Shown: piece by piece, positions 25,882 through 64,000 of the stretch | Layout: each line of letters begins with the position of its first letter | Position numbering within the stretch: position 1 is the stretch's first letter | IMG/VR virus record: IMGVR_UViG_3300044294_000190 | Span: 9,596 to 73,595 of that record | Reading direction: 5' to 3' (one strand) | DNA: 64,000 nucleotides | Source of the DNA: a virus | Made by a program: the position numbers and the translations under genes | The notes under the pieces: generated by a model | Database searches by the model: none | What the model was told of the DNA's origin: nothing | The model's input: the letters and a program-made list of their open reading frames with translations, nothing else

Positions 25882-25905
25882 TCCTTAGTTCTAGGCAGTT
25901 GTGAT

Positions 25906-25936
25906 GTGCAACGGCGCGTTGCACGGTTTAATCTTA
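25906..25936 (-). promoter_or_regulatory. Predicted -10 (TAAGAT) followed by a perfect 8-bp hairpin at the transcript 5' end
   Basis: GTGCAACG-N3-CGTTGCAC at 25906-25924; -10 at 25931-25936. Confidence 0.45.
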
Positions 25937-26467: not shown

Positions 26468-26469
26468 AA

Positions 26470-27321: not shown

Positions 27322-27335
27322 GTAACAAGTTTACT

Positions 27336-28141: not shown

Positions 28142-28148
28142 TTAAACC

Positions 28149-33061: not shown

Positions 33062-34233
33062 TTTTTATTTTTTGTCTCAATTGTTTTTGCAAAAAGTTCC
33101 GTGTTTTCATATATAGCCCAACCACTATAAATTGGAATTACTTCGTATTTAAATCGGTGTTCTCCGTTTGTTTCGTAAGTAACCACACTAAAACCTTGTT
33201 GCCAATTTTCATAACGTGTAAGCGGCCTTCCATCAAGATCCACACCACCTCTTGTAGACGGTACAGCACCATCAATCCGAGCAAGACAACCTGGAGACGC
33301 AGCCATGATAGTGCGAGGTCCAGAAAAATCTTCACGAGTTTTAAACGCAGTTTCAATTCGATGAATGTGACCATAAATCACGCTCGTTTTTTCATTGTTA
33401 AGGTAAACGTGGGCAGTTGAACCGGATGATTTAACACGATCTCCGTGAATAACGCGAAGTTTTTCGTTAATCCAATAATCTGATGCCGGATATCCAGGCC
33501 GGTATTCAACACCATATTCCTCCATCCTGCACAAATACGGAATAGTAAGTACAGGCCACGAGTCAGGGATATTTCCTTTTCGCAACCCATACGCTGCTGC
33601 CGCATTTGTCAGTAAATATTTTGGCATTCGTTCCTCGTGATTGCCTGCAAGCCAAATGATTTTGGCTTTTGGAGCAGCTGCCCGCATTTGTGCGCAGAAT
33701 GTAGTAGCGCGGTCAATAGCCGCTTGGGTAGTTTGTTGATAAGCAGGAGTGGTCAAATACTTGCCCATTTCAGGCAAATCTAAGTTATCTCCTACGCACA
33801 CAATAGTTTCTGGCTGAATCATTGTAATAGCTTCCATTACCACCGCAATAGCTTTTTCGTCGTGAGTTTCGTACAACACGCCGTCTCTGCCGCGATAGTA
33901 ACCAATTTGTGCGTCTGGAACAATTACGTCTTTTTTAAATGTCCCACGTGTTTTTGTAATTCCTTTTTTCTTTTCAATAATTTGAACGGGACCACGTTGG
34001 ATTACCGGCCACTCAGGTCCCTGCTCCCATTTAGGAGAAAATTGAATTGCCGCAAGGTCCTGTACTTCTGCTTCATTTTGATCGTTTTTAAACATTTGTT
34101 GATACAAAGAAACTTGTTTAATATCACCAATGTCTTCAAGCGAAATGTTTTTTCGTTCAAGCAGCTCAGCAATTTTTCCAAGCAGTTTTTCTTTTTGTTG
34201 CGTTTTTAAAACGTCATTCACTATGTTCGACAC
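33058..34233 (-). CDS. Calcineurin-like metallophosphoesterase
   Basis: PDAQ, GDNLD, GNHE, HGD, GHIHR. Confidence 0.9.
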   Translation of the reverse strand: MSNIVNDVLKTQQKEKLLGKIAELLERKNISLEDIGDIKQVSLYQQMFKNDQNEAEVQDLAAIQFSPKWEQGPEWPVIQRGPVQIIEKKKGITKTRGTFKKDVIVPDAQIGYYRGRDGVLYETHDEKAIAVVMEAITMIQPETIVCVGDNLDLPEMGKYLTTPAYQQTTQAAIDRATTFCAQMRAAAPKAKIIWLAGNHEERMPKYLLTNAAAAYGLRKGNIPDSWPVLTIPYLCRMEEYGVEYRPGYPASDYWINEKLRVIHGDRVKSSGSTAHVYLNNEKTSVIYGHIHRIETAFKTREDFSGPRTIMAASPGCLARIDGAVPSTRGGVDLDGRPLTRYENWQQGFSVVTYETNGEHRFKYEVIPIYSGWAIYENTELFAKTIETKNKK

Positions 34234-34498
34234 AAGAGCACTCCTTGTTTACGTGACGTTGAATTGCTGAAACACTAATGTTTAATTTATTTTTTCGCAT
34301 GATTCGAGCCAACCACACGGTACTGTACGTTTTACCGTGACCACTTCCAGTGTCTTTTCTAATCAATGAAATTGCGTCGTAAAGAGCTTTTTGCTCAGAT
34401 TCGTCCTTCAACGAATTCAGAATTTTTATAAACTTACACTCTCGGTTCAATACCTTTGGTGCGGCTTGTAAATCAGAAATTAAAGAGCTTTTAGACAT
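34214..34498 (-). CDS. Small putative HTH/Zn protein
   Basis: LARIMRKNKLNISVSAIQRHVNKECSC. Confidence 0.6.
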   Translation of the reverse strand: MSKSSLISDLQAAPKVLNRECKFIKILNSLKDESEQKALYDAISLIRKDTGSGHGKTYSTVWLARIMRKNKLNISVSAIQRHVNKECSCVEHSE

Positions 34499-39863: not shown

Positions 39864-40091
39864 TTAAAATAACGTTAGTTGATCGGGATTTTCTCTCGGC
39901 CTTGGTTTATCAATACTTTCAATAACGTCTCTAACACGCAACAAAAACTCAAGCATTTCTTCAGATTTTACACACTGATACGTCCGCTCGATGGTAAACG
40001 ACTCTTCAAAAAAAGTTTTATTACCAGGCATTCCCACTAGTTGAGCAACGTCTTGTGAAAGTCGTTGTATGTCTTTAAAGTATCTACTCAT
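39864..40091 (-). CDS. Small protein ending in a QLTLF clamp-binding-like motif
   Basis: C-terminus ENPDQLTLF*. Confidence 0.6.
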   Translation of the reverse strand: MSRYFKDIQRLSQDVAQLVGMPGNKTFFEESFTIERTYQCVKSEEMLEFLLRVRDVIESIDKPRPRENPDQLTLF

Positions 40092-46583: not shown

Positions 46584-47465
46584 TCACGCAAATCTCGTCT
46601 GTGCGGCAAAGACCGAGAATATACCAGTCCCAGTTTTGACCACGGTAAACGTGTACATGTCAACAGAGTTGGTGTTGCCAGAGGTTGGAGCCGTGCCGCC
46701 CTGCCATTTTGTCGTCACCCCAGATGTCGTTCCGTTGATCTGCACTGAGGTTGCATAGTAGGCCGTCCCCCCATTGGTTACCATCCAAGAGACGGTTGCC
46801 ATTTCTCCGTTTACCAACTTGGAGTCGAGCGTCGTTGAAGAATTCCATCTTAAATTCGGCACGAAGTTGGCTGTGGCGTTGTTCAGGTAGTAAATGGTTC
46901 CGAGTTCCACATCAATCGCAGTGGTCCCCGTAGCGCCAATAGACGAAGCCGCATATGTTTCAATTACGGAAGTTGTTTTGATGCTTGAGAATGTGACTGC
47001 TGCATTAGTGGCAACGGACTGACCGATGGCGATGGTCGGACTTGAACCCTCGCCTGGCGTGTGTGTTACAGAGACGCCCGTCCCTGCTGTTACATCAGAA
47101 ACATAGTTGCCAGTCGTGTCTGTTCCAAGCGCAACAGAGTTAGCGGCAACAGTGGCAGTAAGCGTGCCGTTGCCCAAGTTCGTAAGAGTCACCGAGCCCG
47201 TCAAATCTCCAGCAAGGGTGATGACGGGTGAGACGCCAGTAATCGTCGGGCTCGTAAGCGTTTTATTCGTGAGAGTTTGCGTATCAGCGAGAGTGACATA
47301 ACCCGTGGTATCGACAATGTACGAAAGGTCATTCCATGCCGTTGCGCCGTTGCCGATTTTCACCTTCAAGGTGTCGGTCTCGAATCCCATCTCGCCAGCT
47401 TGCAGGGCGGGGTTGGACGAAGTCCATTGTGCCGCCGTTCCTCTGCGAATTTGAATAGTTGCCAC
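46584..47465 (-). CDS. Tail fibre protein (Mtd/hyaluronidase-like N-terminal domain)
   Basis: IQIRRGTAAQWTSSNPALQAGEMGFETDT..KIGNG; TQTLTNKTLTSP; WQGGTAPT. Confidence 0.85.
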   Translation of the reverse strand: MATIQIRRGTAAQWTSSNPALQAGEMGFETDTLKVKIGNGATAWNDLSYIVDTTGYVTLADTQTLTNKTLTSPTITGVSPVITLAGDLTGSVTLTNLGNGTLTATVAANSVALGTDTTGNYVSDVTAGTGVSVTHTPGEGSSPTIAIGQSVATNAAVTFSSIKTTSVIETYAASSIGATGTTAIDVELGTIYYLNNATANFVPNLRWNSSTTLDSKLVNGEMATVSWMVTNGGTAYYATSVQINGTTSGVTTKWQGGTAPTSGNTNSVDMYTFTVVKTGTGIFSVFAAQTRFA

Positions 47466-53520: not shown

Positions 53521-53910
53521 TTACGTTAAGTAGGCGTATCCGGAAAACGCCGATGAAAAGTTTACTACAACTTGTGAAGTGTTAGTGTACGTGATTTCTC
53601 CGTATACAACCGTTTGTGCGCTGTCTACAACAAACACCCCCGGATATCCGCCCAAGGCATGGTTTATTGTCCATGTAGTGGCTGGAGTTCCCTGAGTATG
53701 GATATGTCTACCCGTAGCGGGTAGGACAAGATTAAGAACTTGGCTGGGAGAAACACCCGTGATGCTGGCGGAAGGTTGCCCAGTGGTAACAGTTCCAATG
53801 GTCAAAACATTGGGAGGTCCAGCTACGCCCGGCTCAGTAACCTGAATAATGTTAGATTTTTTTTCTTTTACAGAAACGGTTTTACGTTTTCTGGTTATCT
53901 CAACGGTCAT
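53521..53910 (-). CDS. Fibre-associated structural protein
   Basis: HTQG.PA.TWTINHALGGYP..FSGYAYL. Confidence 0.7.
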   Translation of the reverse strand: MTVEITRKRKTVSVKEKKSNIIQVTEPGVAGPPNVLTIGTVTTGQPSASITGVSPSQVLNLVLPATGRHIHTQGTPATTWTINHALGGYPGVFVVDSAQTVVYGEITYTNTSQVVVNFSSAFSGYAYLT

Positions 53911-54617
53911 ACGGGCTCTACCGACACGGCCTCTTCAACAACAAGTGTGCCTTTAACCATTTGGTCCCAGTCACCTGCAGAGTCTTTTACAAACAAATCA
54001 TAGGTGTAACTGCCGGAGGCAATTGTATTAAGATTAGAAATGTGTAATTGCAAGGTTGCTCCCGTCGCCGGGGCAAGGTACCCACGTCTATTAGCTGGAT
54101 TAAGGCTGGCAATGGTGTCTTCACTAGGCGGTGAGTTGTACCAACGAATGTCCAGGACTACTGTTCCACTAGCATCTTTAGCTTGCATAAAAGCATTTTG
54201 AACAATCAAAACATCCCCGTCTTCGTCTTTCCACGAAAAGGTCCGACGATAGTCCGTTCGCTGTGTGTATCGAAGTTCCATTGCGTCGTCATCCTCCAAT
54301 GGGGTGATTGCTCCATAAGTGCTGACGGCAAGTCGGCCCTTAGCTATTGGTTGGTAAACAGAATTAACAGTTGCCCAAACATCATACGACAGATAGCCTT
54401 CAGGCAAATCCAAAGTCTCATCTTCGTTTAAAGACAGCAGTATATTGTGGTTCCTTATAACAGTGGCGTAAATTTCCTTTTTATGGTTGTCATCAACCTG
54501 AATGTAGGCGTTAGGGTCCGATACTTTTAAACACCAGCGAGTTTGTCGACTTTTTACACTAATTTGACGATCCCACGGCAGCCCACGTGTAATAGAATAA
54601 TTAACAGTAGTAATCAT
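53907..54617 (-). CDS. BppU-like Ig-fold protein (two tandem domains)
   Basis: Twice YD[VL]..KG.L.V. Confidence 0.6.
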   Translation of the reverse strand: MITTVNYSITRGLPWDRQISVKSRQTRWCLKVSDPNAYIQVDDNHKKEIYATVIRNHNILLSLNEDETLDLPEGYLSYDVWATVNSVYQPIAKGRLAVSTYGAITPLEDDDAMELRYTQRTDYRRTFSWKDEDGDVLIVQNAFMQAKDASGTVVLDIRWYNSPPSEDTIASLNPANRRGYLAPATGATLQLHISNLNTIASGSYTYDLFVKDSAGDWDQMVKGTLVVEEAVSVEPV

Positions 54618-54913
54618 TGGCCGTGTTTTTTTCTGGGAAAATCGTGCCCAATTTGAACCATCTGTCTACGAATTCTGGCCTCATTATTTTTAACTGCTCG
54701 ATGATCAGATGGGGTGCTTGCAATGTGTACCAACCCGTCTCCTTCAATTCGAAGTTGTATATGACCATTTTTTAACAAAAACCCCGCTACCCTAGTTGAT
54801 CCTTGGGACACTCTTCCCAACATTTCCCTATGAGCATCGTCCCTAGTTAAGCTGCGTATCCTGCCTTCGGTTAGGGCATGCTGATCCCAATTAAGGTGTT
54901 GCTCAGTGCCCAT
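54614..54913 (-). CDS. HicA-like protein with a leader variant (EQHLNWDQH)
   Basis: KNGHIQL..ASTPSD.RA.KN..ARIRR. Confidence 0.55.
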   Translation of the reverse strand: MGTEQHLNWDQHALTEGRIRSLTRDDAHREMLGRVSQGSTRVAGFLLKNGHIQLRIEGDGLVHIASTPSDHRAVKNNEARIRRQMVQIGHDFPRKKHGQ

Positions 54914-55056
54914 CAGTACACCCCCTCACAACAGGCATCTCTGCATCCACAATTAGTGCATTTGTAGTGAGCATGCTCTGGGCGCATCCGACAACCGCAG
55001 CGAACACACTGCTCGCTGGTATCTTCGGAATCTGGGGTGTCAATTACGTCAACCAC
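54913..55056 (-). CDS. 47-aa zinc-finger micro-protein (not in the ORF track)
   Basis: TAGAAT-N6-GTG; CVRCGCRMRPEHAHYKCTNCGCRDACCEG. Confidence 0.65.
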   Translation of the reverse strand: MVDVIDTPDSEDTSEQCVRCGCRMRPEHAHYKCTNCGCRDACCEGVY

Positions 55057-55065
55057 CCCAATATT

Positions 55066-55329
55066 CTACTCGATGTCGGGAGGCACCATATCTGCTGGCA
55101 TACGGTATGGGAGATGGGATCCCATGTGTTGGAGAGCTTCTTTCCAGTCTTCTGGGCTTTCCAAAACCCGAACCACGTGGACGCAGGGATCATGCCCCTG
55201 GTCAAATTCAAACTCTTCCTCAATAGTTAAAGGAACGCCGTCATGGGTGTAGCACACAGGCCACAAACACCACTTTTGAGAGACCCCGTATTCCAACCAC
55301 TCTTCAAAAGTCATTTTCTTTTTACCCAT
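55066..55329 (-). CDS. Hypothetical metal-binding protein
   Basis: WC..VC.THDG.P..DPC.HV. Confidence 0.65.
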   Translation of the reverse strand: MGKKKMTFEEWLEYGVSQKWCLWPVCYTHDGVPLTIEEEFEFDQGHDPCVHVVRVLESPEDWKEALQHMGSHLPYRMPADMVPPDIE

Positions 55330-55338
55330 GTTTTGCCC

Positions 55339-55488
55339 CTAGTTGACTTGTAGTGTTACCTCGTACACACCATACTCGGTCTGTGCAATGGACAAAACCA
55401 TAAACGCTGTATAGCCTTGCGCCTTAGCAAGATTGATTGCTTGGTTTCGGGCGTCGTTTAGCGCCGGGGTTGTGATAGTGTACGTCAC
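55339..55488 (-). CDS. Small hypothetical protein (not in the ORF track)
   Basis: TTGACA-N17-TAACGT-N6-GTG; alternative ATG at 55494. Confidence 0.5.
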   Translation of the reverse strand: MTYTITTPALNDARNQAINLAKAQGYTAFMVLSIAQTEYGVYEVTLQVN

Positions 55489-55494
55489 GACCAT

Positions 55495-55523
55495 ACGTTA
55501 TCAGTGCCTTTGCTCAATGTCAA
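55495..55523 (-). promoter_or_regulatory. Housekeeping-sigma promoter (leaderless)
   Basis: TTGACA at 55523-55518, 17-nt spacer, TAACGT at 55500-55495. Confidence 0.6.
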
Positions 55524-55681
55524 CTATCCTTATGAAACTTTTTAATTTTCTTTTTGGATCTTCGATCCCCGGACGACATCCTATTTTTCTTGCCTAAATG
55601 AGATTTCCACCTGTCGTCTACGTTTTCGTCTTCGTCTTCGTATGACGAAAAAAATTGTTCACTTAGTCGATTTTTGTTCAT
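55520..55681 (-). CDS. 53-aa acidic/basic micro-protein (MNKNRLSEQF...)
   Basis: Overlaps the upstream ORF; LSEQF resembles the leader core. Confidence 0.45.
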   Translation of the reverse strand: MNKNRLSEQFFSSYEDEDENVDDRWKSHLGKKNRMSSGDRRSKKKIKKFHKDS

Positions 55682-55808
55682 TAATACGTAAAATTCCAAG
55701 TGTTGTGTATAGTTTTTGTTCTTTGGGGTTTAAAGGAGTTCCCAAAGATGACAGCAAGCTTTTAATTCGCTGCTTTCCGTAGTCACCCAAACCTAATTGT
55801 TTACTCAT
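55659..55808 (-). CDS. 49-aa micro-protein (MSKQLGLGDYGKQRIK...)
   Basis: Shares the GLGxxG[KR]QR[IV][KR] motif with 40611..41282. Confidence 0.5.
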   Translation of the reverse strand: MSKQLGLGDYGKQRIKSLLSSLGTPLNPKEQKLYTTLGILRINEQKSTK

Positions 55809-55826
55809 ATGTATGGCAATAATACA

Positions 55827-57203
55827 TCATCGGCCCCACCCACCAAATATTCTGTCAAGACGATCCTTTTTATCTTGATTCTTTGGTTTATAATCATCCC
55901 TGCGCATTTGTTCACGAGTAAGTTTTTTAGGGGGGGTCAACTTGGGTTCAGGATCATCCCACAGTTTTAGTTGGTTTTGGGCTTGCTTTCGTTGGTGCAC
56001 AGTTTCGTGATATTTGTACGTATCAACAGCGTGGTTTGCAACCCCACTAAACCCAAGTTGATGCATGCTTTCATGGATAACTGGATTTTCATGAAGAAGT
56101 TGTCCTAAAAACAACGCCCGTGCTTCGTTTTTAAATGTTGGTGCGTTTAGGTAATCGTACGAACCTAACCTTGGTGCCTCGTATTCGGGTTCACTTATTT
56201 TCCTATCTTCGTTTTCTCGCTTTTTTTCTTCTAACCATTTTGTACCACTTTCATGTAAATGCTTGTCAATAAGTTCGTTTATTTTTGGTAATTGACTAAT
56301 TCCGTTGATACCATGCATTCCCACGTGCAGACGAGTTGCGGCGTACAAAGCTTGTTCTTGTTTGTTTGTCCAATACTTAGCCCTTGTGGTGTATCCACCC
56401 CTGCGCACCAAGTCTTCTGTGCGAAGTGGGTGGGAAGGGTGGAGTCTTGACTCGTTTTCAAAATCTAGTTTTTTGGTAACTGCGTAACGTTCAGCTATGC
56501 CGTCAGCAATTCCTTCTGAAGTTGGCGAAATAACTGACTTTCCTCTCCTCTCCTCCATCACCCTTTCCCCACCTACCGAGGACAACCCGGTCCTTCTTTT
56601 TTCAAAAAAAGGTACTCGAAGATGCGAATCAAATGCATGACCAAGTTCGTGAGCAAACGTTTCTTGATCGTATTCCCGTCCACCATGATATTTGTCCAGC
56701 GACTCGGCTCGCATGTTCACTTCATTAAGCAGGGGGTTGTAGGATCCGGCGACGCGCCACTGCATCGACGGAACCGTAATCTTGGCTTTTGTTTGTTCTA
56801 GTTCTTGTTTTGAAAAATTAGTTTTTGCAATGTTTTCGTGTATTTCCTTGGCTCGACTTGATTCTGGTAACAGTTTCTTAATTTTAAAAAGTTGCTGAAT
56901 GTCTGAAAGGCGCTGCTCGTGGGGGTACAAAGGATCGCCAGGTCTATATGTGGCTGTTTCTGGGGCAAACAACATTCCCTGCGGGTACTCTGTGACTTGG
57001 TAGTCGGTAATCTTATCAGGAGTGGTGACTTCCTCTTTAACGTACTCGTAATCTCTGAAAAATGTACCCATTTGTTCAGCTTGCCGCTTTTCAACCTGAG
57101 TTAATCCGGATTCCGGATCTTTCTTTTCTTTGATTGTTTTGTACGCGGTTTCTCCCGACTCAACGGTGTAGGTGTTATTAAACTGTGAACCAAGTTGAGG
57201 CAT
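55827..57203 (-). CDS. Zincin metallopeptidase-domain protein
   Basis: AGSYNP, TFAHELGHAFD, EGIADG; leaderless start MPQLGSQF at 57203. Confidence 0.7.
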   Translation of the reverse strand: MPQLGSQFNNTYTVESGETAYKTIKEKKDPESGLTQVEKRQAEQMGTFFRDYEYVKEEVTTPDKITDYQVTEYPQGMLFAPETATYRPGDPLYPHEQRLSDIQQLFKIKKLLPESSRAKEIHENIAKTNFSKQELEQTKAKITVPSMQWRVAGSYNPLLNEVNMRAESLDKYHGGREYDQETFAHELGHAFDSHLRVPFFEKRRTGLSSVGGERVMEERRGKSVISPTSEGIADGIAERYAVTKKLDFENESRLHPSHPLRTEDLVRRGGYTTRAKYWTNKQEQALYAATRLHVGMHGINGISQLPKINELIDKHLHESGTKWLEEKKRENEDRKISEPEYEAPRLGSYDYLNAPTFKNEARALFLGQLLHENPVIHESMHQLGFSGVANHAVDTYKYHETVHQRKQAQNQLKLWDDPEPKLTPPKKLTREQMRRDDYKPKNQDKKDRLDRIFGGWGR

Positions 57204-57245
57204 TACAAGATTATACCCTAGGTAAATTAACGATAGAATAAGTAA
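57204..57245. promoter_or_regulatory. Back-to-back leaderless promoters
   Basis: Minus-strand TATAAT (57215-57210)-N6-ATG and plus-strand TAGAAT (57234-57239)-N6-GTG. Confidence 0.65.
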
Positions 57246-57929
57246 GTGCCTAATATAAAAAAACCAAACTCGCCACTTTGGCGTGGAAAACCGCTTATTG
57301 TTTACCACGCAAATGCCTTAGAACACAAAGCTCCTCACCTTGCCAGGGGCGTTGGTAAATCATCGTTTCATGCAGGAACGTTAAACGCCGCACTTGACCG
57401 GGCTGCGTATCAAACAAGCAAGCAAATGGATGAATATTATACAGATGATCACTTTCCTGAAATAACAGACGCAGACGAAAACTTTGCTGCAAATCAAAAG
57501 TTATTTGAGCATGGTGAGGGGCCTGAGCCGTCATTCAATCTGCACACATATCAAATCATACGCCGCCCCACAATGCTTACGTTTGAAGACCCGCACGATC
57601 AAGGGTATTCTGATGAACAACTAATACCTGATGACTACGTAGAAGCTTTACAAGTTCCTGAGAAGGGAAAACGCAATGAACCTTTTGTTCACAGATACGT
57701 CAACCGTTGGGAAGACCCCGGCTCCAATTCATTTGTAATTTCAAAGAATGCTGTCAATAGGGGCTATGTCAAACATTTAAGCAGCCAACAATTTAGAATC
57801 CCATACGAGGGTGGTGAAATTGAAGACGTTCACAAATACGTCAAGAGAGAAATGGGTGTTCCAGACGATGGTTACCCACAAATCGGAAAACCGTCTGGTG
57901 GCTATTTAAAGCCCTTTTGGGAACAATAA
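57246..57929 (+). CDS. ADP-ribosyltransferase-like protein (polyvalent-protein ART type)
   Basis: VYHA, FHAGTLNAALDR, HTYQI, YVNRWEDPGSNSFVI. Confidence 0.55.
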   Translation: MPNIKKPNSPLWRGKPLIVYHANALEHKAPHLARGVGKSSFHAGTLNAALDRAAYQTSKQMDEYYTDDHFPEITDADENFAANQKLFEHGEGPEPSFNLHTYQIIRRPTMLTFEDPHDQGYSDEQLIPDDYVEALQVPEKGKRNEPFVHRYVNRWEDPGSNSFVISKNAVNRGYVKHLSSQQFRIPYEGGEIEDVHKYVKREMGVPDDGYPQIGKPSGGYLKPFWEQ

Positions 57930-57931
57930 AC

Positions 57932-58456
57932 ATGGCAGCTAGAGACCATATTAGTAATCCTCAGTTTCAATTGAGGGTTTTTCACATGTCATATGGTAAG
58001 CAGCCACCTCACACAGTAACAAAACACATAGCAACATGGGAAGGAAACAACGTTCACCCAGACGTTCTTCACATGGGAACAGAATCAGCGGCTAGGCACA
58101 CATATAGAAGGTATCTACACGAATACGAAATAGACTCAGACGTAGTAGACCCAGTGACGCACGGAGACGCCAAATACGTCATGGATAGTCGGCCCAAGGA
58201 GTTTGCTGAAAAAATGCGTAACAAACAGCAGGAATTGTGGGAAACAGTCTCAGCACGACCAGAAGACGCGCTCAAGCGCAACGTGGTTTTACCATACAGA
58301 AACTATGTCGAGGACAGCGGAAGCATTTCGTACATCGTTCCTAAACAGCTCATCACGCAGGGCAAAGTTCGTCATGTAGGCACGAAAGACATTCAAGAGG
58401 GTGTTCGTGAAAAATTGGAAAAAGCTGATGCTGAGTACATTAAACATGGCAGCTAA
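57932..58456 (+). CDS. ART-like paralog of 57246..57929, leader-tagged
   Basis: MAARDHISNPQF; VFHMS, LHMGTESAA, HEYEI, YRNYVEDSGSISYIV. Confidence 0.55.
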   Translation: MAARDHISNPQFQLRVFHMSYGKQPPHTVTKHIATWEGNNVHPDVLHMGTESAARHTYRRYLHEYEIDSDVVDPVTHGDAKYVMDSRPKEFAEKMRNKQQELWETVSARPEDALKRNVVLPYRNYVEDSGSISYIVPKQLITQGKVRHVGTKDIQEGVREKLEKADAEYIKHGS

Positions 58457-58865
58457 AGATCATATTAGTGATACTCAATTTCATTTGCATTTGTTTCATG
58501 CAACTGCTAGTGAAAACGTTGACTACATTAAAGCTCAAGGTTTAATTAGCCCATATTTAACAAATGATTGGGAACTTGCAGAACACTACGCACTTTTGCA
58601 AAGCGACTCACGTGGCGGTGGGTTTGAGGTACCATCGTCAATCATTACAGTTAGGGCAAATCCAAGAAATTTGGTTCCCGATAACAATTCTTTTGAAGAC
58701 CCTGTTCATACCTACCAATCAAGAAATTTTGATAAAACACAACTTAGGGACAACAGTGATTGGAAAAACTCGTTAAAACAAACAGGCTCTGTTTTGCACA
58801 TGGGAAAAATTGCGCCACATAATATTTTAGAAATTACCCCTTATGCTGGGCACAAGTTACATTAG
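58446..58865 (+). CDS. ART-fold protein (H-type), leader-tagged
   Basis: MAAKDHISDTQF; LFHAT..I..QGL..YLT..A..YA; GKIAPHNI. Confidence 0.55.
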   Translation: MAAKDHISDTQFHLHLFHATASENVDYIKAQGLISPYLTNDWELAEHYALLQSDSRGGGFEVPSSIITVRANPRNLVPDNNSFEDPVHTYQSRNFDKTQLRDNSDWKNSLKQTGSVLHMGKIAPHNILEITPYAGHKLH

Positions 58866-58867
58866 GA

Positions 58868-59482
58868 TTAGGCCGTGTGGTCATCAATGACCGCATCAAA
58901 TTGGGGTTTTTGATCAAACGATTCGGGATACCAATATTGAGTATTAACTCTATAACGTGGGCGATTTCCCCACTTGGGCATGTCCACCGTAAACGACGGG
59001 TCATGCACCAACAGTCGATTTCCCGGCAACGTAGCCAAATATCCGCAATCAAGCCATACGAAGTTGAAATGCTTGTGTTGGTCCGGAGTCCGTGAGTACA
59101 CATCGTCGTATGGGGCGGCAGTAAACCAATAATGACCTGATTCCCACAATCCTTTCAAATATGCCCTGACTGACAGCTCAGAAAGCGCAGAATACTCTTC
59201 CACCCCAAAAGCATGCCCGTAGCATGCCCAAACTTGTAATTCGCCTAACTGGTGGTTATGGGGGCTGGTTTCATTCTTAAGAAACGCATGAACAGGTAAA
59301 TGTTGGATTAGTGCCCCATTTGACAACAGTGCTGAAATGCCCCAAGCCCTATTTGGTAGAGCTGACAACCCAAACAACAATGCGGGCGTGGTTTCCCCAA
59401 ACCCCTCCTGCATGTCATACAAAAACTCGTTTTTTACGTAGCCGTACATGGGTCGAGGAATGCTTGCAATGTGGTTAGCCAT
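58868..59482 (-). CDS. Hypothetical protein, no leader
   Basis: VKNEFLYD, LPVHAF, PDQHKH, PGNR. Confidence 0.7.
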   Translation of the reverse strand: MANHIASIPRPMYGYVKNEFLYDMQEGFGETTPALLFGLSALPNRAWGISALLSNGALIQHLPVHAFLKNETSPHNHQLGELQVWACYGHAFGVEEYSALSELSVRAYLKGLWESGHYWFTAAPYDDVYSRTPDQHKHFNFVWLDCGYLATLPGNRLLVHDPSFTVDMPKWGNRPRYRVNTQYWYPESFDQKPQFDAVIDDHTA

Positions 59483-59516
59483 GACTTTTTAATTATAAAG
59501 TAAAATGGTTGACGAT

Positions 59517-59939
59517 ATGGCCGCCAGAGAGCATCTCTATGGAGAGCAATTACGTATGTTTATTCAAGCACACGAGTTGATAGATCTACCATCAAGAGAT
59601 GTTGATGACGGTTTAGAAATTCAAGATGAACATCTTCCTAAAACCCTATGGCAAGATGATGACGTACGCCATGCGAAAATAAGAGAAGCTGAAGACTCTG
59701 GGCTAATAGACAGCGTGCTCGACCACGGAGTTTTAAAACCCGTTAATTTAGGGTTTGTGCACCCAGTAAGAACTGATATAAAAACACCAAAAAAACTGTA
59801 CATTTTAGATGGAAACCATCGAATTGCCGCAGCAAACGAAATTGACCCCAGCATGTACGTACCGGTGACGTATTCAGAGAATGAGGAAAAGTTTTACGCA
59901 GATCATCTTAAAGAGCTAGCAAACGAGTTTTTAGATTAA
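59517..59939 (+). CDS. ParB/Srx-like domain protein, leader-tagged
   Basis: MAAREHLYGEQLRMF; SV..HGVLKPV; ILDGNHRIAAA; VPV. Confidence 0.7.
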   Translation: MAAREHLYGEQLRMFIQAHELIDLPSRDVDDGLEIQDEHLPKTLWQDDDVRHAKIREAEDSGLIDSVLDHGVLKPVNLGFVHPVRTDIKTPKKLYILDGNHRIAAANEIDPSMYVPVTYSENEEKFYADHLKELANEFLD

Positions 59940-59953
59940 TAAAGGGTTTATTA

Positions 59954-60343
59954 ATGTCGGCAAAAAACTCTCTCAATGCTATTCAGTTTCACTATAGCCC
60001 TTTTAATGAAGACGAAGATTCTGCTGAAATAACAGCATTTGACGTTAATACGGGGTTAAAGGTCGGAAACCTGGCGTGGAGCGAAAAACAACTTGAGCAC
60101 GTGTCTGTCAGTCCGGCATATCAGCGACAAGGAATTGCAACTGAAATGTGGAAGCGCGCAATGCAAGCGCACAAAAATCAGCCACTTCATTATCCAAAAC
60201 CAATCCCGTCTCGCTTTAGGACTAAACCCGGAGATGAGTGGGCCTGGTCTATTTACAACAAAAATTTGTCAGAACGCCCAGAACCAAACGACTACAACTG
60301 GGATGAAGACGAAGATGAACTACTAAACCGGGAGGAATCATAA
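59954..60343 (+). CDS. GNAT acetyltransferase, leader-tagged
   Basis: MSAKNSLNAIQF; VSVSPAYQRQGIATEMW; SRFRTKPGDEWA. Confidence 0.75.
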   Translation: MSAKNSLNAIQFHYSPFNEDEDSAEITAFDVNTGLKVGNLAWSEKQLEHVSVSPAYQRQGIATEMWKRAMQAHKNQPLHYPKPIPSRFRTKPGDEWAWSIYNKNLSERPEPNDYNWDEDEDELLNREES

Positions 60344-60693
60344 TGCCAATTTTCGGTCCGCAATTTGATGGTTTGCAGCTGCAATACACCCGTTGGAAAA
60401 ACGTTCCGTATTCGGAACACAACATTAGTGTTGTCAAAGCGGAGTCTGGGGGAGCGGTTGCGCGTATGGTTTGGGACTCTGAAGGGAAGATGGGCAATGT
60501 CCACGTTGATTCAAACTTACGAAGAAAAGGCATAGCAACCAAAATGTGGCAATTTGCCCAAAGCCTTTCACAACAAGATCCAACAATTGCCCCTATTAGA
60601 CATTCAGATGTACGAACCAAAGCCGGAGATAGTTGGGCACGTAAGGTTGGAGGAGACTTACCACCACTTAAAGACGGAAAGCTCGTTGACTAA
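60343..60693 (+). CDS. GNAT acetyltransferase (short leader MPIFGPQF)
   Basis: VHVDSNLRRKGIATKMW; HSDVRTKAGDSWA. Confidence 0.75.
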   Translation: MPIFGPQFDGLQLQYTRWKNVPYSEHNISVVKAESGGAVARMVWDSEGKMGNVHVDSNLRRKGIATKMWQFAQSLSQQDPTIAPIRHSDVRTKAGDSWARKVGGDLPPLKDGKLVD

Positions 60694-60983
60694 TGGCTGC
60701 TTCTGAACATATTAATTGGGACCAACATTATGGTAAAAGTTTTAAATGGGGGTATGTTCCCGATGAACAATGGGCTGGACCGTCAGATACTCCAAAAAAC
60801 GAGCGTATTGGATTAATTGCCAAACACACCGCTGTTGACTGGGATGACTGGAAAGATGCAATAGACCATCCAGAAATACAAAAATGGAAAGAAAATTGGT
60901 CCACTATGTACCACACTCTTCCACAATACAAAAAGGACCAACTAAAACATTCAGCAGATATTGAAAATCAACAACATGGTTAA
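60693..60983 (+). CDS. Unknown protein, leader-tagged
   Basis: MAASEHINWDQH; TAATG-coupled. Confidence 0.65.
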   Translation: MAASEHINWDQHYGKSFKWGYVPDEQWAGPSDTPKNERIGLIAKHTAVDWDDWKDAIDHPEIQKWKENWSTMYHTLPQYKKDQLKHSADIENQQHG

Positions 60984-61004
60984 GAAAAAACTGGGTTACG
61001 ACTA

Positions 61005-61376
61005 ATGGCTGCCAAAGACAATATCAATGGTGTCCAATTCAGGTTTGAAAAAGGAAACCCACGTTCGCCCATTGGTAAAGAGCAACGGCACAAGGTTGTT
61101 GCTGAAGACGGATCGGACTACGTCGGAGAGCTCGAATGGTATCCGCGTGGCAGCAGGGCCATTACTAATCTCTTTGTTGAAGGGAATTACCGTAGGCAAG
61201 GAATTGCTACTGGTATGTGGCATTACGCCCATGAGATTGCCAAAACAACCAGGGGCGTACAACCCCCTAGACACTCCACGGATCGCACTGACGATGGTGA
61301 CGCCTGGGCACGTAGCGTCAGTAAACGCCTTCCTCCACGCAAACAAGACTCACGACACAGTTGGGAACAGGAATAA
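61005..61376 (+). CDS. GNAT acetyltransferase, leader-tagged
   Basis: MAAKDNINGVQF; LFVEGNYRRQGIATGMW; HSTDRTDDGDAWA. Confidence 0.75.
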   Translation: MAAKDNINGVQFRFEKGNPRSPIGKEQRHKVVAEDGSDYVGELEWYPRGSRAITNLFVEGNYRRQGIATGMWHYAHEIAKTTRGVQPPRHSTDRTDDGDAWARSVSKRLPPRKQDSRHSWEQE

Positions 61377-61657
61377 TGTCTGCTGCCGACAATTTAAACC
61401 CTAAATTGTTTCATGGGACTTCAAAACCATTTTTGCCACGTACTCGAAAAGTACGCCCATTTAAAAACAGTGGTCGCGTAAAGGACGGGTGGGATCCAAA
61501 TTGGAAGATTGCCCACGCAACTACTGACATCAACGAAGCTCGCCTGTACGGACCTGTTGTATACGAGGTCGCTTATGATGAGCACACCCAGCCCGGGTTT
61601 GGTGAAACCGCGTACTTTAGTGAAAAAGGTTTTAAAATTATAAAGAGAGTTGAATAA
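61376..61657 (+). CDS. Minimal Arr-like ART-fold protein, leader-tagged
   Basis: MSAADNLNPKLFHGT..AHATTDINEARLYG.VVYEV..S..GFKI. Confidence 0.55.
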   Translation: MSAADNLNPKLFHGTSKPFLPRTRKVRPFKNSGRVKDGWDPNWKIAHATTDINEARLYGPVVYEVAYDEHTQPGFGETAYFSEKGFKIIKRVE

Positions 61658-61698
61658 TGGCTGCCAATAAAAACCTGTATGATGAAAAAGGTAAATAA
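61657..61698 (+). other. 13-codon leader-only minigene MAANKNLYDEKGK
   Basis: TAATG overlaps at both ends; matches the start of the leader consensus. Confidence 0.55.
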
Positions 61699-62087
61699 TG
61701 GCTGCTTCTGACCATCTCCATCACGAGCAACTAAGAATGTTTATGCGTCCCCACGAAGTGCAAAAGTTAGTAAAAGAATCCGTTGACCGTCGTTGGATAT
61801 CGGACAGAGAAAGAACGATGCGTAATTTGTGGGCATGGAAGAAAAGAGACATGAAAGAAAGACACAAAGACCTTAATGTATCGGTGAAGACGTCGGGTGT
61901 ACTTAACCCCATTATCATCATTCCTCCTTCGTCCCAGAATTACGCAACAAAGTACCCAAAATACACGATGGGTCAAGGACACCACCGTGTGGTGGCTGCC
62001 CTGAACGCAGAAAAGACGACCAAACAAGAGTATTACGTTCCAGTCGTATACGACCGCGACTTTAACCACATGCATCCGCGACTTTAA
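61698..62087 (+). CDS. ParB/Srx-like protein, leader-tagged (C-terminus altered by a 22-bp duplication)
   Basis: MAASDHLHHEQLRMF; SVKTSGVLNPI; GQGHHRVVAA; VPVVY. Confidence 0.7.
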   Translation: MAASDHLHHEQLRMFMRPHEVQKLVKESVDRRWISDRERTMRNLWAWKKRDMKERHKDLNVSVKTSGVLNPIIIIPPSSQNYATKYPKYTMGQGHHRVVAALNAEKTTKQEYYVPVVYDRDFNHMHPRL

Positions 62088-62097
62088 CCACATGCAT
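62054..62097 (+). repeat. Perfect 22-bp tandem duplication CCGCGACTTTAACCACATGCAT
   Basis: 62054-62075 is identical to 62076-62097. Confidence 0.9.
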
Positions 62098-62126
62098 TAC
62101 ATGATCGAAGCAGCGAGGTTTTTAAG

Positions 62127-62570
62127 ATGACTCCCGCAGGTATACCCGAAGAGGACTGGGTTTTGGTGCGGCGTATCTGCCGGAAGCACGGCGTCGACCC
62201 GCTTCTTATCGTGGCGATAGGCATGGCCGAAACACACTGGTTCACCAAAGGTGACGGCCTGAAAGGCAACGGTCTCGGCGTTGGCTCATACGATTCGGGG
62301 TCTACCTACAAGTATGCTGGTGTCCGCGACCAAGTGACGCGGGCATGCGAAATCCTTATCAAAAACAAGGCTACCACCATCGTTGATATTCTTGACGGGA
62401 AACTCCACGCCTCGGGCCGTTGGGAGAACGGCAAATATGTCGGCCCCGGCGGGTCGGTGAAATGGGCGTCGGCTGACACCGCCGACGGCGGCCCGCATCA
62501 AGGGCAACCGTTTCCGTGGTCGGCTAACGTTGTGAAGATCTATAAGCGTCTCGTGCGGGAGTTGGCGTGA
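62127..62570 (+). CDS. Lysozyme-fold / transglycosylase-like protein, GC-rich, no leader
   Basis: HGVDPLLIVAIGMAET..N.LGVG..W..NV..IY. Confidence 0.6.
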   Translation: MTPAGIPEEDWVLVRRICRKHGVDPLLIVAIGMAETHWFTKGDGLKGNGLGVGSYDSGSTYKYAGVRDQVTRACEILIKNKATTIVDILDGKLHASGRWENGKYVGPGGSVKWASADTADGGPHQGQPFPWSANVVKIYKRLVRELA

Positions 62571-62603
62571 AATTGGTGCGTTGAATGCACGCACTCTTGC
62601 CCG

Positions 62604-62966
62604 CTACTCATAACGCACTGGTATGAACATATCAGGATTAACATCGTTGGCTGCTGCAATCCTGTGGTGTCCATTGTTAATTAGGATTTGTTTACCCTGT
62701 TTCAACGTCACAAAGTGCTTTACTCCTTCATCTTTTACACTTTGATACAAGCTCTTTTTACCCGGTTTTTTGGGAGTATGCACGTCGTGCTCGGATCCGA
62801 TATGGGATTCTCGAAGTTTACCAATGTAAAGCCCCAAATCTTCTCGCATGGTTCTTGAAGACATAAACGGCTCAGAAAGCCATTCTCGGGTTGGAACATC
62901 CATCAGTTCTTTTGCTTGCATAAACATTCGCAACTGGTCTGGGTTGAGGTTGTCTGAGGCTGCCAT
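62604..62966 (-). CDS. ParB/Srx-like protein, leader-tagged
   Basis: MAASDNLNPDQLRMF; SLYQSVKDEGV; NGHHRIAAA; IPV. Confidence 0.7.
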   Translation of the reverse strand: MAASDNLNPDQLRMFMQAKELMDVPTREWLSEPFMSSRTMREDLGLYIGKLRESHIGSEHDVHTPKKPGKKSLYQSVKDEGVKHFVTLKQGKQILINNGHHRIAAANDVNPDMFIPVRYE

Positions 62967-62971
62967 TAAAG

Positions 62972-63427
62972 TTAAAGTATAGTTCCATCCGGCAGTTCTC
63001 GTTCGTCCCAATACGTTTCGGCATGATCTGGACCATATGGACCATGAATGTCGACATACGGGAAAACATTCATTGTTTTTCGCTTTAGGAACCGATGTTG
63101 AGGCTCTATAAGCGGGTATGGAGCCTTTGCATCAAATTGACGATGTGTCAGGTCGACTACGTAAGGCCCGCGAGATGTTTGTACACCGGCAACGGTGTGC
63201 GTGTGGGCATGTGGAAGGCTTTCCCAATCGGTATCTTCAGAGATGTCATAAGTTTGAAAATAGGCATCGTGCCCGTCTTTTACAGCTTCTCCAACATAGT
63301 TTTTTGTTGCATCCCAACACTGCCCGTCAGCGCATTCTGGAGTGTCGTAGGAATAAGGTAAATTCTTTAAATGGGCTTGAACGTGGGCACGTAACTGAGC
63401 CGGAGAAAGGTGGTCTGAGGCTGCCAT
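62972..63427 (-). CDS. Papain/transglutaminase-like Cys-His-Asp protein, leader-tagged
   Basis: MAASDHLSPAQL; GQCWDA, HTVAGV, VVDLTHRQF. Confidence 0.6.
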   Translation of the reverse strand: MAASDHLSPAQLRAHVQAHLKNLPYSYDTPECADGQCWDATKNYVGEAVKDGHDAYFQTYDISEDTDWESLPHAHTHTVAGVQTSRGPYVVDLTHRQFDAKAPYPLIEPQHRFLKRKTMNVFPYVDIHGPYGPDHAETYWDERELPDGTIL

Positions 63428-63906
63428 CAATCCCTACCTTCTATTGGATTGTTACTAGACTCAGTAAACCAAAAACTGTTGGGTGTGTTTTCCTTTTTTT
63501 CAACGTCATAAGTTTTAAACGGTTTCATTGATTTTCTTTTTAAAAATTTACGCCGTGGTTCTACAAGTGGGTATGGTGCTTTTTCATCATATTGACGATG
63601 GGTTAAATCAACGATGTACGGTCCACGAGATGTTTGTACATTTGCGACAGTGTGTCCGGGAAAAAAATGCGTTTTAAAATATTTTTGATGAACATCGTCT
63701 GGCATAACATAGGTGTGTAAGACAACGCTATGACCATCTTTTATTGCTTTTGTTGCATATTCTTCGGATGCTTCGCCGCACTCGCCTTCGGCGCATTCGG
63801 AAGTAGCATAATGTTGAGGCCATTCGGCATAATCATAACGATCATCCAAGTGTTGTTGAACGTGGGCGCGTAGCTGAGCCGGAGAAAGATGATCTGACGC
63901 TGCCAC
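63427..63906 (-). CDS. Papain/transglutaminase-like paralog, leader-tagged
   Basis: MAASDHLSPAQL; GECGEAS, HTVANV, IVDLTHRQY. Confidence 0.6.
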   Translation of the reverse strand: MAASDHLSPAQLRAHVQQHLDDRYDYAEWPQHYATSECAEGECGEASEEYATKAIKDGHSVVLHTYVMPDDVHQKYFKTHFFPGHTVANVQTSRGPYIVDLTHRQYDEKAPYPLVEPRRKFLKRKSMKPFKTYDVEKKENTPNSFWFTESSNNPIEGRD

Positions 63907-64000
63907 TAGGCTTTTCCTTCTATAGGTTCGTTATATGTATGAAATATCATAGGTTTGTCATTAATAAAATCAGATGCCCCAATAAGGCGCACTGGCGTTC
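63906..64000 (-). CDS. Partial CDS (3' end), possibly a further member of the array
   Basis: ...YNEPIEGKA* resembles the NNPIEGRD* end of the next gene; TAGTG coupling. Confidence 0.45.
   Translation of the reverse strand, partial: TPVRLIGASDFINDKPMIFHTYNEPIEGKA

Follow-up and report, generated by a model that had tools for sequence, protein, structure and literature searches.

A portable N-terminal peptide tag on unrelated small enzymes of a group of actinophages, with a possible role in virion loading

We describe a 12-residue sequence (consensus MAAsDHLnPxQ[LF]) found only at N-termini, where it is under selection as a peptide and precedes unrelated folds; it recurs widely in one group of uncultured actinobacterial phages. 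Twelve genes between 54.9 and 63.9 kb of the window (the whole 64,000-nt stretch analysed, positions 9,596 to 73,595 of IMG/VR record IMGVR_UViG_3300044294_000190) open with M-[AS]-A-x-[DE]-[HN]-[LI]-[NSH]-x-x-Q-[FLH]. The best reading of this tag, to which we assign a probability of roughly 0.45, is that it loads enzymes into the virus particle.

Occurrence and conservation of the tag

All 12 full-length tags are present at the starts that an earlier note on this DNA had proposed (the 5′ ends of the tagged genes in Table 1). As that note had also stated, the tag is not hydrophobic and lies on both strands, with about eight or nine genes on the plus strand and about three or four on the minus strand. 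A relaxed core pattern (the tag without its initial Met) matched the whole 73,595-base contig 12 times, each match being immediately preceded by ATG or GTG (12/12); in 100 first-order Markov simulations, the mean was 2.97 matches, and start-preceded matches averaged 0.28 with a maximum of 2. With a stricter pattern, all 11 matches were start-preceded, and none arose in any of the 100 simulations. The predicted N-terminal enrichment over shuffled controls was likewise borne out: the motif occurs in 11 of the 115 called ORFs, each time inside the first 30 residues, vs a mean of 0.7 and a maximum of 4 in residue-shuffled ORFs (200 shuffles). Across the window and 16 related loci, a start codon lies directly before 42 of the 50 core-motif matches in long frames; the remaining eight look like chance.

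Conservation at the protein level, another proposal of the earlier note, was confirmed. The 45 bases 5′ of the tag starts revealed no common sequence when compared, and tags that agree at a residue share its codon in just 42 % of cases (310 comparisons). Because codons and upstream DNA vary and the residues are kept across GC 0.40–0.67 and 1,674 cluster representatives of the ParB-like family, we conclude that the peptide is under purifying selection.

Related IMG/VR contigs (GC 40–67 %) extend the description of a portable tag on unrelated small enzymes: the 83 non-redundant tagged proteins collected from them fall into 22 BLAST families, and in a census of the tagged ParB-like proteins, that family by itself comprised the 1,674 cluster representatives. 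The tagged proteins are all small (55–229 aa, median 129 aa) and as a group not basic (median pI 6.3; 27 % above 8), which counts against virion loading. We found nothing on the tag in Pfam, PHROGs or the literature searched, and a query of 50,697 deposited phage genomes with two tagged proteins returned no match. All tag-bearing contigs with recognisable structural genes belong to one WhiB-encoding myovirus group (actinophages); the proposed restriction to this clade holds among the contigs tested. No tag occurs in Streptomyces phage BRock, a relative that has been cultured, although its capsid (59 % identity), portal and scaffold are shared; these proteins alone thus do not predict the system. 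The contig has an estimated completeness of 78 %, and since it ends just past the last tagged gene, part of the array may be missing.

Tagged proteins and their untagged neighbours

Table 1. Tagged genes and untagged neighbours in the array of the window
Position	Strand	Feature	N-terminus	Basis
54614..54913	-	Tagged HicA-like protein, 99 aa	MGTEQHLNWDQH	Tag profile E 2.6e-5
55827..57203	-	HELGH (zincin-like) protein	MPQLGSQF (probable start)	ORF and HELGH motif; no statistically supported tag
57246..57929	+	Untagged paralogue of 57932 family, 227 aa		No tag match
57932..58456	+	Tagged protein, 174 aa	MAARDHISNPQF	Tag profile; tagged homologue in G003
58446..58865	+	Tagged protein, family 2, 139 aa	MAAKDHISDTQF	Tag profile; 13 tagged homologues
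58868..59482	-	Untagged neighbour, 204 aa, phrog_3704		Conserved in G001, G003, G007
59517..59939	+	Tagged ParB/Srx-like protein, 140 aa	MAAREHLYGEQL	Tag profile; family model, fold search, census
59954..60343	+	Tagged GNAT acetyltransferase, 129 aa	MSAKNSLNAIQF	Pfam Acetyltransf_1 24.6 bits (cut-off 20.7)
60343..60693	+	GNAT paralogue without supported tag, 116 aa	MPIFGPQF	Alignment with tagged GNATs
60693..60983	+	Tagged protein, 96 aa	MAASEHINWDQH	Tag profile; tagged homologue in G001
61005..61376	+	Tagged GNAT acetyltransferase, 123 aa	MAAKDNINGVQF	Pfam Acetyltransf_10 28.3 bits (cut-off 23.6)
61376..61657	+	Tagged Arr-type ADP-ribosyltransferase-like protein, 93 aa	MSAADNLNPKLF then HGT	First row of alignment A8
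61657..61698	+	13-codon mini-ORF	MAANKNLYDEKGK	Start and stop overlap adjoining genes; read from sequence
61698..62087	+	Tagged ParB/Srx-like protein, 129 aa	MAASDHLHHEQL	Pfam ParB_N E 0.0037, below cut-off
62127..62570	+	Untagged neighbour, 147 aa, weak glucosaminidase-like signal		Pfam Glucosaminidase E 0.0047, below cut-off
62604..62966	-	Tagged ParB/Srx-like protein, 120 aa	MAASDNLNPDQL	AlphaFold2 model, Foldseek
62972..63427	-	Tagged Cys-His-Asp family protein, 151 aa	MAASDHLSPAQL	Alignment A7
63427..63906	-	Tagged Cys-His-Asp family protein, 159 aa	AASDHLSPAQL	GTG start

The tag had been placed on at least five folds. Four of these stand (ParB/Srx, GNAT, ADP-ribosyltransferase and HicA-like), and the fifth, a papain/transglutaminase-like fold for the Cys-His-Asp family, is tentative. 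The tag opens all 15 members of this family in alignment A7, in which Cys43, His85 and Asp100 are invariant. The model of the 63906 protein (mean pLDDT 68.7) returned a best Foldseek E value of 0.095, and its best VIA-align matches (SseI, Z 7.4; protein glutaminase, 7.2; arylamine N-acetyltransferase, 7.1; PMT C-terminal domain, 6.8) are consistent with one fold class, with Z scores inside the tool's stated background range. For the ParB/Srx-like 62966 protein (AlphaFold2 mean pLDDT 77.1; residues 1–10 at 57), all Foldseek matches listed were to the ParB/Srx superfamily (KorB, ParB, Noc, sulfiredoxin and SbnI; best E value 2.7e-3).

The 57932 protein probably has an ADP-ribosyltransferase fold: in the ESM Atlas, its nearest named clusters by features were PARP, Arr-ms and Tox-ART-HYD1 (0.86–0.87), and by structure ART-PolyVal (TM 0.53) and RES (TM 0.56), all of which serve as leads only. 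The 58446 protein is possibly ADP-ribosyltransferase-like; profile–profile comparison of its family with the Arr-like family gave a probability of 89 %, which is inflated because the common tag was part of the compared profiles, and the family had no sequence match in the PDB. The A8 profile of the Arr-like family matched the solved rifampin ADP-ribosyltransferases 2hw2 and 9iaf from profile position 12 (E value 2.3e-4), and the relative P0009 scored above the Pfam Arr-ms cut-off with the domain from residue 11, i.e. a known domain begins right behind the tag. The HicA-like protein matched phrog_2089 (E value 9.9e-11) and, by tblastn, mycobacteriophage genes annotated 'HicA-like toxin' (best E value 5e-4); these alignments begin at residue 18–48 and therefore do not cover the tag. 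Tagged homologues of this protein are encoded in G003 and G007. The stop of its gene overlaps the start of the fibre-region gene 53907–54617, at the start of the fibre-region operon, an overlap that was counted for virion loading. The 60693 protein had no match in Pfam or PHROG and no usable match in the ESM Atlas. The 13-codon mini-ORF, judging from its letters, may be a remnant or a free-standing tag.

The 'shorter variants' of the earlier note, MPQLGSQF (57203), MPIFGPQF (60343) and MNKNRLSEQF (55681), and the internal HLSSQQF of the 57246 gene were not upheld, as none reached E ≤ 10 in a tag-profile search of 18,073 candidate starts. MPQLGSQF at 57203 is probably the true start of its gene, since the homologues in G001 and G007 start at the same place (MPQLGSQF / MPNLGEQF); the protein has no match in Pfam or PHROG. 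Tagged and untagged paralogues occur within one family: the GNATs 59954 and 61005 are tagged vs the untagged 60343 (Pfam GNAT families, E value about 1e-3), and in the ADP-ribosyltransferase-fold family, 57932 is tagged and 57246 (27 % identity in alignment) is not.

Genomic context and candidate functions

In G004, homologues of window genes 26470–27321 and 25937–26467 flank a tagged ParB-like gene, with overlapping stops and starts, and at the corresponding place G002 carries a ParB-like gene whose tag is degenerate. A tagged 176-aa gene of G006 has its start at the stop of the gene before it and precedes the portal gene by 175 bases. In a family-blind pattern scan of IMG/VR (26 unique tagged genes), seven adjoin a neck/portal homologue (same strand, gap 0–3 bases) and 15 lie within 3 kb of one, all co-oriented; 10 of the 26 fall in loci without a structural homologue. 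Six of the seven operon-embedded cases are ParB-like and only L070 belongs to another family; hence, the context evidence applies mainly to the ParB-like protein, which is a core gene of the phage group and often stands in the neck/portal operon. In the window, the structural genes and most of the tagged ones (57932–62087) are on opposite strands, and the accessory array that contains the latter might just as well be a region for early host takeover.

The earlier note had proposed that the tag packages enzymes into the virion. The portable tag stands, and the packaging is suggested circumstantially by late-operon context, the enzyme set and the T4 and P1 precedents. We propose that the 12-residue N-terminus would act as a portable, exposed targeting peptide, docking during particle assembly on a head or neck component that is conserved in these actinophages. 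Docking would enclose the small enzymes (ParB/Srx-like, GNAT, ADP-ribosyltransferase-fold, HicA-like and Cys-His-Asp proteins of 55–229 aa) in the virion, and they would enter the next host cell along with the DNA. The ParB-like protein was probably the first bearer of the tag, and the accessory enzymes of the variable array would have gained the same label. We infer virion presence, a docking partner and injection because the tag is exclusively N-terminal, spans 22 families with synonymous codon variation and persists across the GC range; because it directly precedes domains and is modelled with low confidence; because tagged and untagged paralogues coexist, as in T4 Alt vs ModA/ModB; because tagged genes of relatives stand in late structural operons; because the enzyme set overlaps domains of polyvalent proteins predicted to be packaged; and because all tagged proteins are small. 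No objective support emerged for the further idea that the tag imitates the C-terminus of the scaffold.

Hub-binding motifs are typically short terminal peptides common to unrelated enzymes, as the tag is; it could be a docking peptide for a non-virion partner, for instance a host hub (sliding clamp, RNA polymerase or ribosome) or a chaperone, inhibitor or regulator encoded by the phage, that brings the enzymes together or restrains them. The ParB-like tag runs on to Q11-L12-x-[ML]14-F15 (among 101 in-register representatives: Q in 98, L in 83, M or L in 94 and F in 86), which we take to resemble the clamp-binding consensus, a 75-aa protein adjoining the terminase gene has a C-terminal NPDQLTLF, and the window array is mostly accessory and on the strand opposite the structural genes. 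However, the [ML]-F positions are missing in the GNAT, Arr-like, Cys-His-Asp, HicA-like and other families, a clamp motif leaves the best-conserved M-A-A-x-D-H-L unexplained, residues 15–17 of the ParB-like model belong to a strand within the fold and are not a free peptide, and placement in neck/portal operons is not accounted for; we regard such a partner as somewhat unlikely.

The tag might instead be a stability, processing or modification signal (a degron, or a site of cleavage or N-terminal modification) timing the activity of toxin-like enzymes, possibly via the HslV-family peptidase of the phage or the array GNATs; operon context is left unexplained by a degron as well. In 95 of the 101 ParB-like representatives, the second residue is Ala, Ser or Pro, which favours removal of the initiator Met and a uniform new N-terminus; the HslV-family peptidase gene lies close to that of the portal (Pfam Proteasome 32 bits; phrog_1040, E value 2e-26), and the array holds three small GNATs. 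Such a signal is nevertheless improbable, given that G006 (rated 100 % complete) has about five tagged genes without an HslV-like gene, none was seen in G002 or G004 either, and nothing links the GNATs to N-termini. We give still less weight to a start cassette with no targeting role, spread by recombination and kept for translation initiation or by descent: tagged genes do cluster in arrays, where 5′-end exchange is plausible, and the mini-ORF sits between two of them, but the codon variation, the unconserved upstream DNA and the persistence of the residues argue against it. Least probable of all is a role in export, whether through a host secretion pathway or to leave the infected cell, which would fit an N-terminal position on toxin-like domains; the tag has neither a hydrophobic core nor a twin arginine, its 12 residues are short relative to known export leaders, and no secretion genes were seen among the genes examined.

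Comparison with known loading systems

In PVC/eCIS, unrelated effectors carry an N-terminal leader through which they are loaded into a contractile particle; these leaders are longer, are not known to follow a strict motif and load a DNA-free tube. The phage tag is likewise N-terminal and on unrelated proteins, but it belongs to a complete phage, with genes for capsid, portal and terminase.

Virion loading by a short peptide has a precedent in the capsid-targeting sequence (CTS) of the T4-type internal proteins, described in PMC3012670 as an N-terminal peptide that steers internal proteins into the scaffolding core for injection with the DNA. As outlined there, it resembles the phage tag in being the sole conserved part of diverse small proteins from variable loci. 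No sequence relation between the two was detectable (two tagged proteins against 50,697 phage records), and the tag belongs to another lineage, that of actinophage myoviruses, which encode their scaffold as a separate protein. The head-module genes tested included no recognisable prohead protease, which leaves T4-style cleavage and removal of the tag without a visible agent. The putative cargo also differs in consisting mostly of recognisable enzymes. One review describes T4 Alt as injected and its paralogues ModA and ModB as not.

For P1 DarB, an N-terminal signal of >9 and <30 residues is reported to suffice to send a reporter into a myovirus head (PMC9024508), and Dar cargo includes the ParB-domain protein DdrB (PMC9024508; PMC5512222). 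Both features recall the tagged set, although the DarB signal is described in these papers for one very large protein and the tag is common to many families.

A parallel in content is offered by the polyvalent proteins of phages and conjugative elements. Iyer et al. 2017 describe ART, RimI-like GNAT, ParB and metallopeptidase domains in them, predict that these domains are delivered to the host along with the DNA, and interpret solo copies located close to late genes as pointing to deployment in the capsid. The head-module genes tested showed no MuF-like carrier domain. The functional repertoire of the tagged set is the same, and the 57932 protein can be likened to polyvalent proteins through its ART-PolyVal lead; in contrast to a common polypeptide, the domains here are separate small genes with a common 12-residue tag.

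A shared N-terminal peptide and its distribution

Twelve ORFs in the window (54.9-63.9 kb) begin with M-[AS]-A-x-[DE]-[HN]-[LI]-[NSH]-x-x-Q-[FLH], a 12-residue tag whose consensus is MAAsDHLnPxQ[LF]. With the Met left out, the core pattern has 12 matches in the whole contig (G000), all 12 lying right behind a start codon; 100 Markov simulations gave a mean of 2.97 matches, 0.28 of them behind a start, and a stricter pattern was observed 11 times but never in simulation. The enrichment at N-termini that an earlier note had predicted was found, the motif occurring in 11/115 real ORFs versus a mean of 0.7 in residue-shuffled ORFs (200 shuffles). Its start corrections are likewise supported, since the tag is precisely where homologues start, both in other contigs and in the protein database. 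The four shorter variants it had listed (MPQLGSQF at 57203, MPIFGPQF at 60343, MNKNRLSEQF at 55681 and the internal HLSSQQF of the 57246 gene) found no support, as none reached E ≤ 10 when the tag profile was run against 18,073 candidate starts.

The 45 bases upstream of the tag starts have nothing in common. Identical residues share the same codon in only 42 % of 310 pairs between tags, so selection acts on the peptide itself. A DNA repeat or promoter cassette as the cause of the tag was rejected, as the upstream DNA is unrelated and the codons vary. A scan for promoters and terminators was of no help (5 promoter-like sites vs 17.6 expected; 8 terminator-like sites vs 11.9 expected).

A profile of the tagged ParB-like family retrieved 1,674 representatives of 50 %-identity clusters (among 1.84 billion), 743 of them at E ≤ 1e-10. 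The tag was detected at E ≤ 0.01 in 106 of 149 representatives taken from the best-listed 150, 101 times in register with residue 1; the remainder are mostly shortened variants retaining L-N-P-x-Q-L. An IMG/VR scan seeded with the same family yielded 16 loci bearing further tagged genes from other families, and a family-blind degenerate DNA pattern gave 53 IMG/VR matches, 31 of which (26 unique proteins, on contigs of GC 0.40-0.67) were judged by stated criteria to be real tags. By whole-contig scanning, G000 and the related contig G001 have 12 tagged genes each, G003, G006 and G007 about five each, and G002 and G004 one each. With the first 14 residues masked, BLAST sorts the 83 non-redundant tagged proteins into 22 families. 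The idea of a portable tag is thus upheld by a pattern that is highly non-random and far broader than the earlier note could see.

Restriction to one phage clade, also predicted, held as far as the comparison went: wherever a tag-bearing contig has structural or replication genes that can be recognised, it shares them with the window. The nearest cultured relative, Streptomyces phage BRock, has no tag match at E ≤ 5 and no tagged families; the single BLAST match to BRock from the 83 tagged proteins is partial (38 residues) and was judged spurious. Nothing was found in deposited phage genomes with ParB-like and Arr-like queries. A pattern scan of GTDB representatives matched 30 stretches with no relative among them, which is weak evidence because the patterns are narrow, and a tag-profile search of 5.8 billion proteins gave only 28 matches at E ≤ 10 among 5,656 candidates, since a 12-residue profile is too weak for a database of that size. 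The tag strings are absent from searchable papers, and the literature on capsid targeting, cargo proteins and freshwater actinophages is silent on the motif.

Tagged proteins and neighbouring features

Tagged proteins are 55-229 aa long, with one recognisable domain in each that has an assigned fold, and a profile search for longer ones found nothing above 229 aa. The tag itself and most of the tagged families have no model in Pfam or PHROGs.

Tagged genes and neighbouring features of the window (genes by start position or coordinates; A8, alignment of the tagged Arr-like family)
Feature	Position	Strand	Remarks
HicA-like, tagged	54913	-	
Gap of 42 bases	57204-57245		separates the zincin-like gene 57203 (-) from the first plus-strand array gene, 57246; starts divergent
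Probable ADP-ribosyltransferase fold, tagged	57932	+	Atlas leads PARP, Arr, ART-PolyVal, RES
Possible ADP-ribosyltransferase fold, tagged	58446	+	profile match score inflated by shared tag
ParB/Srx-like, tagged	59517, 61698	+	G-H-H-R loop kept
ParB/Srx-like, tagged	62966	-	G-H-H-R loop kept
GNAT, tagged	59954, 61005	+	above Pfam cut-offs
GNAT paralogue, tag unsupported	60343	+	
No fold assigned, tagged	60693	+	no usable ESM Atlas match
Arr-type ADP-ribosyltransferase family, tagged	61376	+	A8 profile vs solved Arr 2hw2, E 2.3e-4, from position 12
13-codon ORF (MAANKNLYDEKGK)	61657-61698	+	starts on the stop of the Arr-like gene, ends on the next ParB-like start
Gap of 33 bases	62570/62604		between convergent gene ends
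Cys-His-Asp family, tagged	63427, 63906	-	invariant Cys43, His85, Asp100
HslV-family (proteasome-type) peptidase	32426-33061	-	two genes upstream of portal, beside metallophosphatase gene
75-aa protein	39864-40091	-	directly upstream of large terminase gene; C-terminal end NPDQLTLF

Across 14 ParB/Srx-like sequences the G, second H and R of the G-H-H-R loop are invariant and the first H nearly so. The AlphaFold2 model has a mean pLDDT of 77, and the Foldseek matches shown all belong to the ParB/Srx superfamily (KorB, ParB, Noc, sulfiredoxin, SbnI), the best E value being only 2.7e-3; the Pfam ParB_N score is under the cut-off. A predicted fold with a G-x-x-R-containing loop thus places the three window proteins in this superfamily. 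Assignment of the 61376 family to the Arr type comes from profile similarity, through A8 and the relative P0009 (28.8 bits vs a Pfam cut-off of 25, match from residue 11) rather than the window protein scored alone. Because the known domain of this family starts directly past the tag, and the first ten residues have mean pLDDT values of 57 and 70 in the two models, the tag is an appendage and not part of a common domain. For the Cys-His-Asp family, the best structural matches (SseI, protein glutaminase, arylamine N-acetyltransferase and the PMT C-terminal domain; Z 6.8-7.4) agree among themselves but stay within the background of the tool. The 13-codon ORF resembles a tag with no protein attached, be it a remainder of a deletion or a free-standing peptide. 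Neither of the two tabulated gaps yielded a convincing promoter or terminator.

The phage and the gene context in its relatives

The phage is contractile-tailed, with an SPP1-type portal, a capsid protein and a terminase among the genes identified; its sheath and capsid proteins show 33 % and 59 % identity, respectively, to those of BRock. The window's capsid gene is at 28467-29546, its scaffold gene at 29580-30368 and its portal gene at 30420-32111. In the high-GC relatives G002, G006 and G010, the capsid match is split in two around an insertion that the window capsid does not have (open frames of 450-570 aa vs 359 aa). We infer an actinobacterial host because relatives carry WhiB genes (4/5 records tested; none in the window's own, incomplete contig) and because the HicA-like gene matches only phages of Mycobacterium, Gordonia and Microbacterium. 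Culturable actinomycetes are the probable hosts of the high-GC relatives of G002, G004 and G006. The contig is 73,595 bases long, with a completeness rating of 78 %, and the window covers its bases 9,596-73,595. Almost all genes of the window lie on the minus strand, and the tagged region is placed between the tail-fibre genes and the contig end, which falls 94 bases past the last tagged gene. In G003 and G007 (92-97 kb) a block of small genes, WhiB among them, lies between the array and the genes for replication; this block is missing from G000, so the array may continue past its end.

In G004, a tagged ParB-like gene (12076-12483) sits between homologues of window genes 26470-27321 and 25937-26467, its start overlapping the stop of the upstream gene, and in G002 a ParB-like gene with a degenerate tag (33617-34279) occupies the equivalent slot. 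We call the two flanking genes neck genes by their position between capsid and sheath only; Pfam and PHROGs gave no name to window genes 24812-28400. The slot between or beside them is recurrent (G004, G002 and the pattern-scan loci L055, L064, L070, L073, L083 and L092) and is occupied by a tagged ParB-like gene, except in L070, where the tagged gene encodes a 111-aa protein of unassigned family; in the window nothing separates the two neck genes. G006 has a tagged gene for a 176-aa protein shortly before the portal gene; the start of this tagged gene lies on the stop codon of its upstream neighbour. Among the 26 unique genes of the family-blind scan, seven adjoin a same-strand neck or portal homologue at a distance of 0-3 bases (six ParB-like, only the L070 gene being from another family), 15 have a structural homologue no more than 3 kb away, in every case with the same orientation, and 10 are in loci without any structural homologue. 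In the window, the tagged HicA-like gene and the leading gene of the fibre-region operon overlap.

The ParB-like gene behaves as a core gene of the group and is missing in BRock. It is common to G000, G003, G006 and G007 without a BLAST match in BRock, as are 14860-15273, 16932-18785, 18785-21640, 25937-26467, 27497-28141 and 46584-47465, a comparison too coarse to single out a partner of the tag.

Candidate functions and known systems

The late gene context, the polyvalent-protein repertoire and the T4 and P1 precedents together make a virion cargo-loading signal the best single explanation of the tag, a plausible reading to which we give a probability of roughly 45 %. The late context consists of the neck and portal placement of tagged genes in relatives, chiefly ParB-like ones. 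Against loading, most tagged window genes form an accessory block of opposite orientation, the tagged proteins are not basic as a group, and the head-module genes scanned include no recognisable prohead protease. The main alternative is that the tag docks onto a partner outside the virion. The sliding-clamp-binding consensus is a Q-L-x-L-F-like pentapeptide, and the ParB-like tag runs on into a similar Q-L-x-M-F; however, this continuation is absent from the GNAT, Arr-like, Cys-His-Asp, HicA-like and other families, and a clamp-binding motif was rejected as an explanation of the whole tag. The NPDQLTLF end of the 75-aa protein near the terminase gene resembles both the tag core and the clamp consensus.

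A degron or processing signal tied to the phage's HslV-family peptidase would suit the presence of that gene, conserved in G003 and G007 (58-60 % identity), but is weakened because G006, rated 100 % complete, is tagged yet has no HslV-like gene; none was found in G002 or G004 either, and the genes tested showed no partner ATPase. That the shared N-terminus is a neutral start cassette is contradicted by its codon variation and its conservation over a wide GC range. Mimicry of the scaffold was unsupported: the C-terminal scaffold stretch is conserved in G000, G003, G007, G006, G002 and the tagless BRock, and falls outside the five best internal matches of the tag and core profiles in each of five genomes.

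A fuller version of the loading reading, which we hold more tentatively, is that a large uncultured group of actinobacterial myoviruses would use a 12-residue N-terminal address label, independent in origin of the T4 and P1 signals, to load interchangeable single-domain toxin-like enzymes into the virion for co-injection. The cargo would comprise ADP-ribosyltransferases, acetyltransferases, ParB/Srx proteins, HicA-like proteins and a probable deamidase or peptidase, and acquiring or losing the tag would be all it takes for a gene's product to be delivered or not. Such a system would be the 'atomised', non-covalent equivalent of polyvalent proteins. If loading is correct, this would be the third independent case of N-terminal capsid targeting, after T4 and P1, and the first where a single short motif is visibly shared, throughout a phage group, by many recognisable enzyme families. 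It would provide a sequence rule predicting injected accessory proteins in uncultured actinophages, explain the gene-by-gene shuffling of phage first-strike enzymes and offer a short handle for packaging foreign proteins in actinophage particles. Even with a non-virion partner, the peptide is a clear experimental target because it has no annotation although more than a thousand protein clusters conserve it.

Sec and Tat signal peptides need a hydrophobic core or a twin-arginine with a hydrophobic core; the tag, which is polar and acidic and contains no hydrophobic stretch, has neither, in agreement with the earlier note. T4 and P1 offer published precedents for N-terminal capsid targeting, and the T4-type capsid-targeting sequence (CTS) is likewise a short conserved N-terminal peptide on unrelated small proteins, here 12 window genes and 22 BLAST families. 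Two tagged proteins used as tblastn queries found no match at E 0.01 in 50,697 phage records, T4-like phages included. The T4 CTS is removed by a prohead protease; no such protease family was seen among the head-module genes scanned here. T4 internal proteins are present in the virion and injected; for the tagged proteins, gene context makes this a prediction. Polyvalent proteins, in the account of Iyer et al. (2017), draw on a repertoire of ART, GNAT, ParB and metallopeptidase domains that is matched here, the metallopeptidase being a HELGH protein (55827-57203) read from sequence only. They carry 2 to 15 effector domains per polypeptide, unlike the short proteins of the array, which are single-domain where a fold is assigned. 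Virion loading would combine N-terminal capsid targeting with an unfused polyvalent-protein repertoire.
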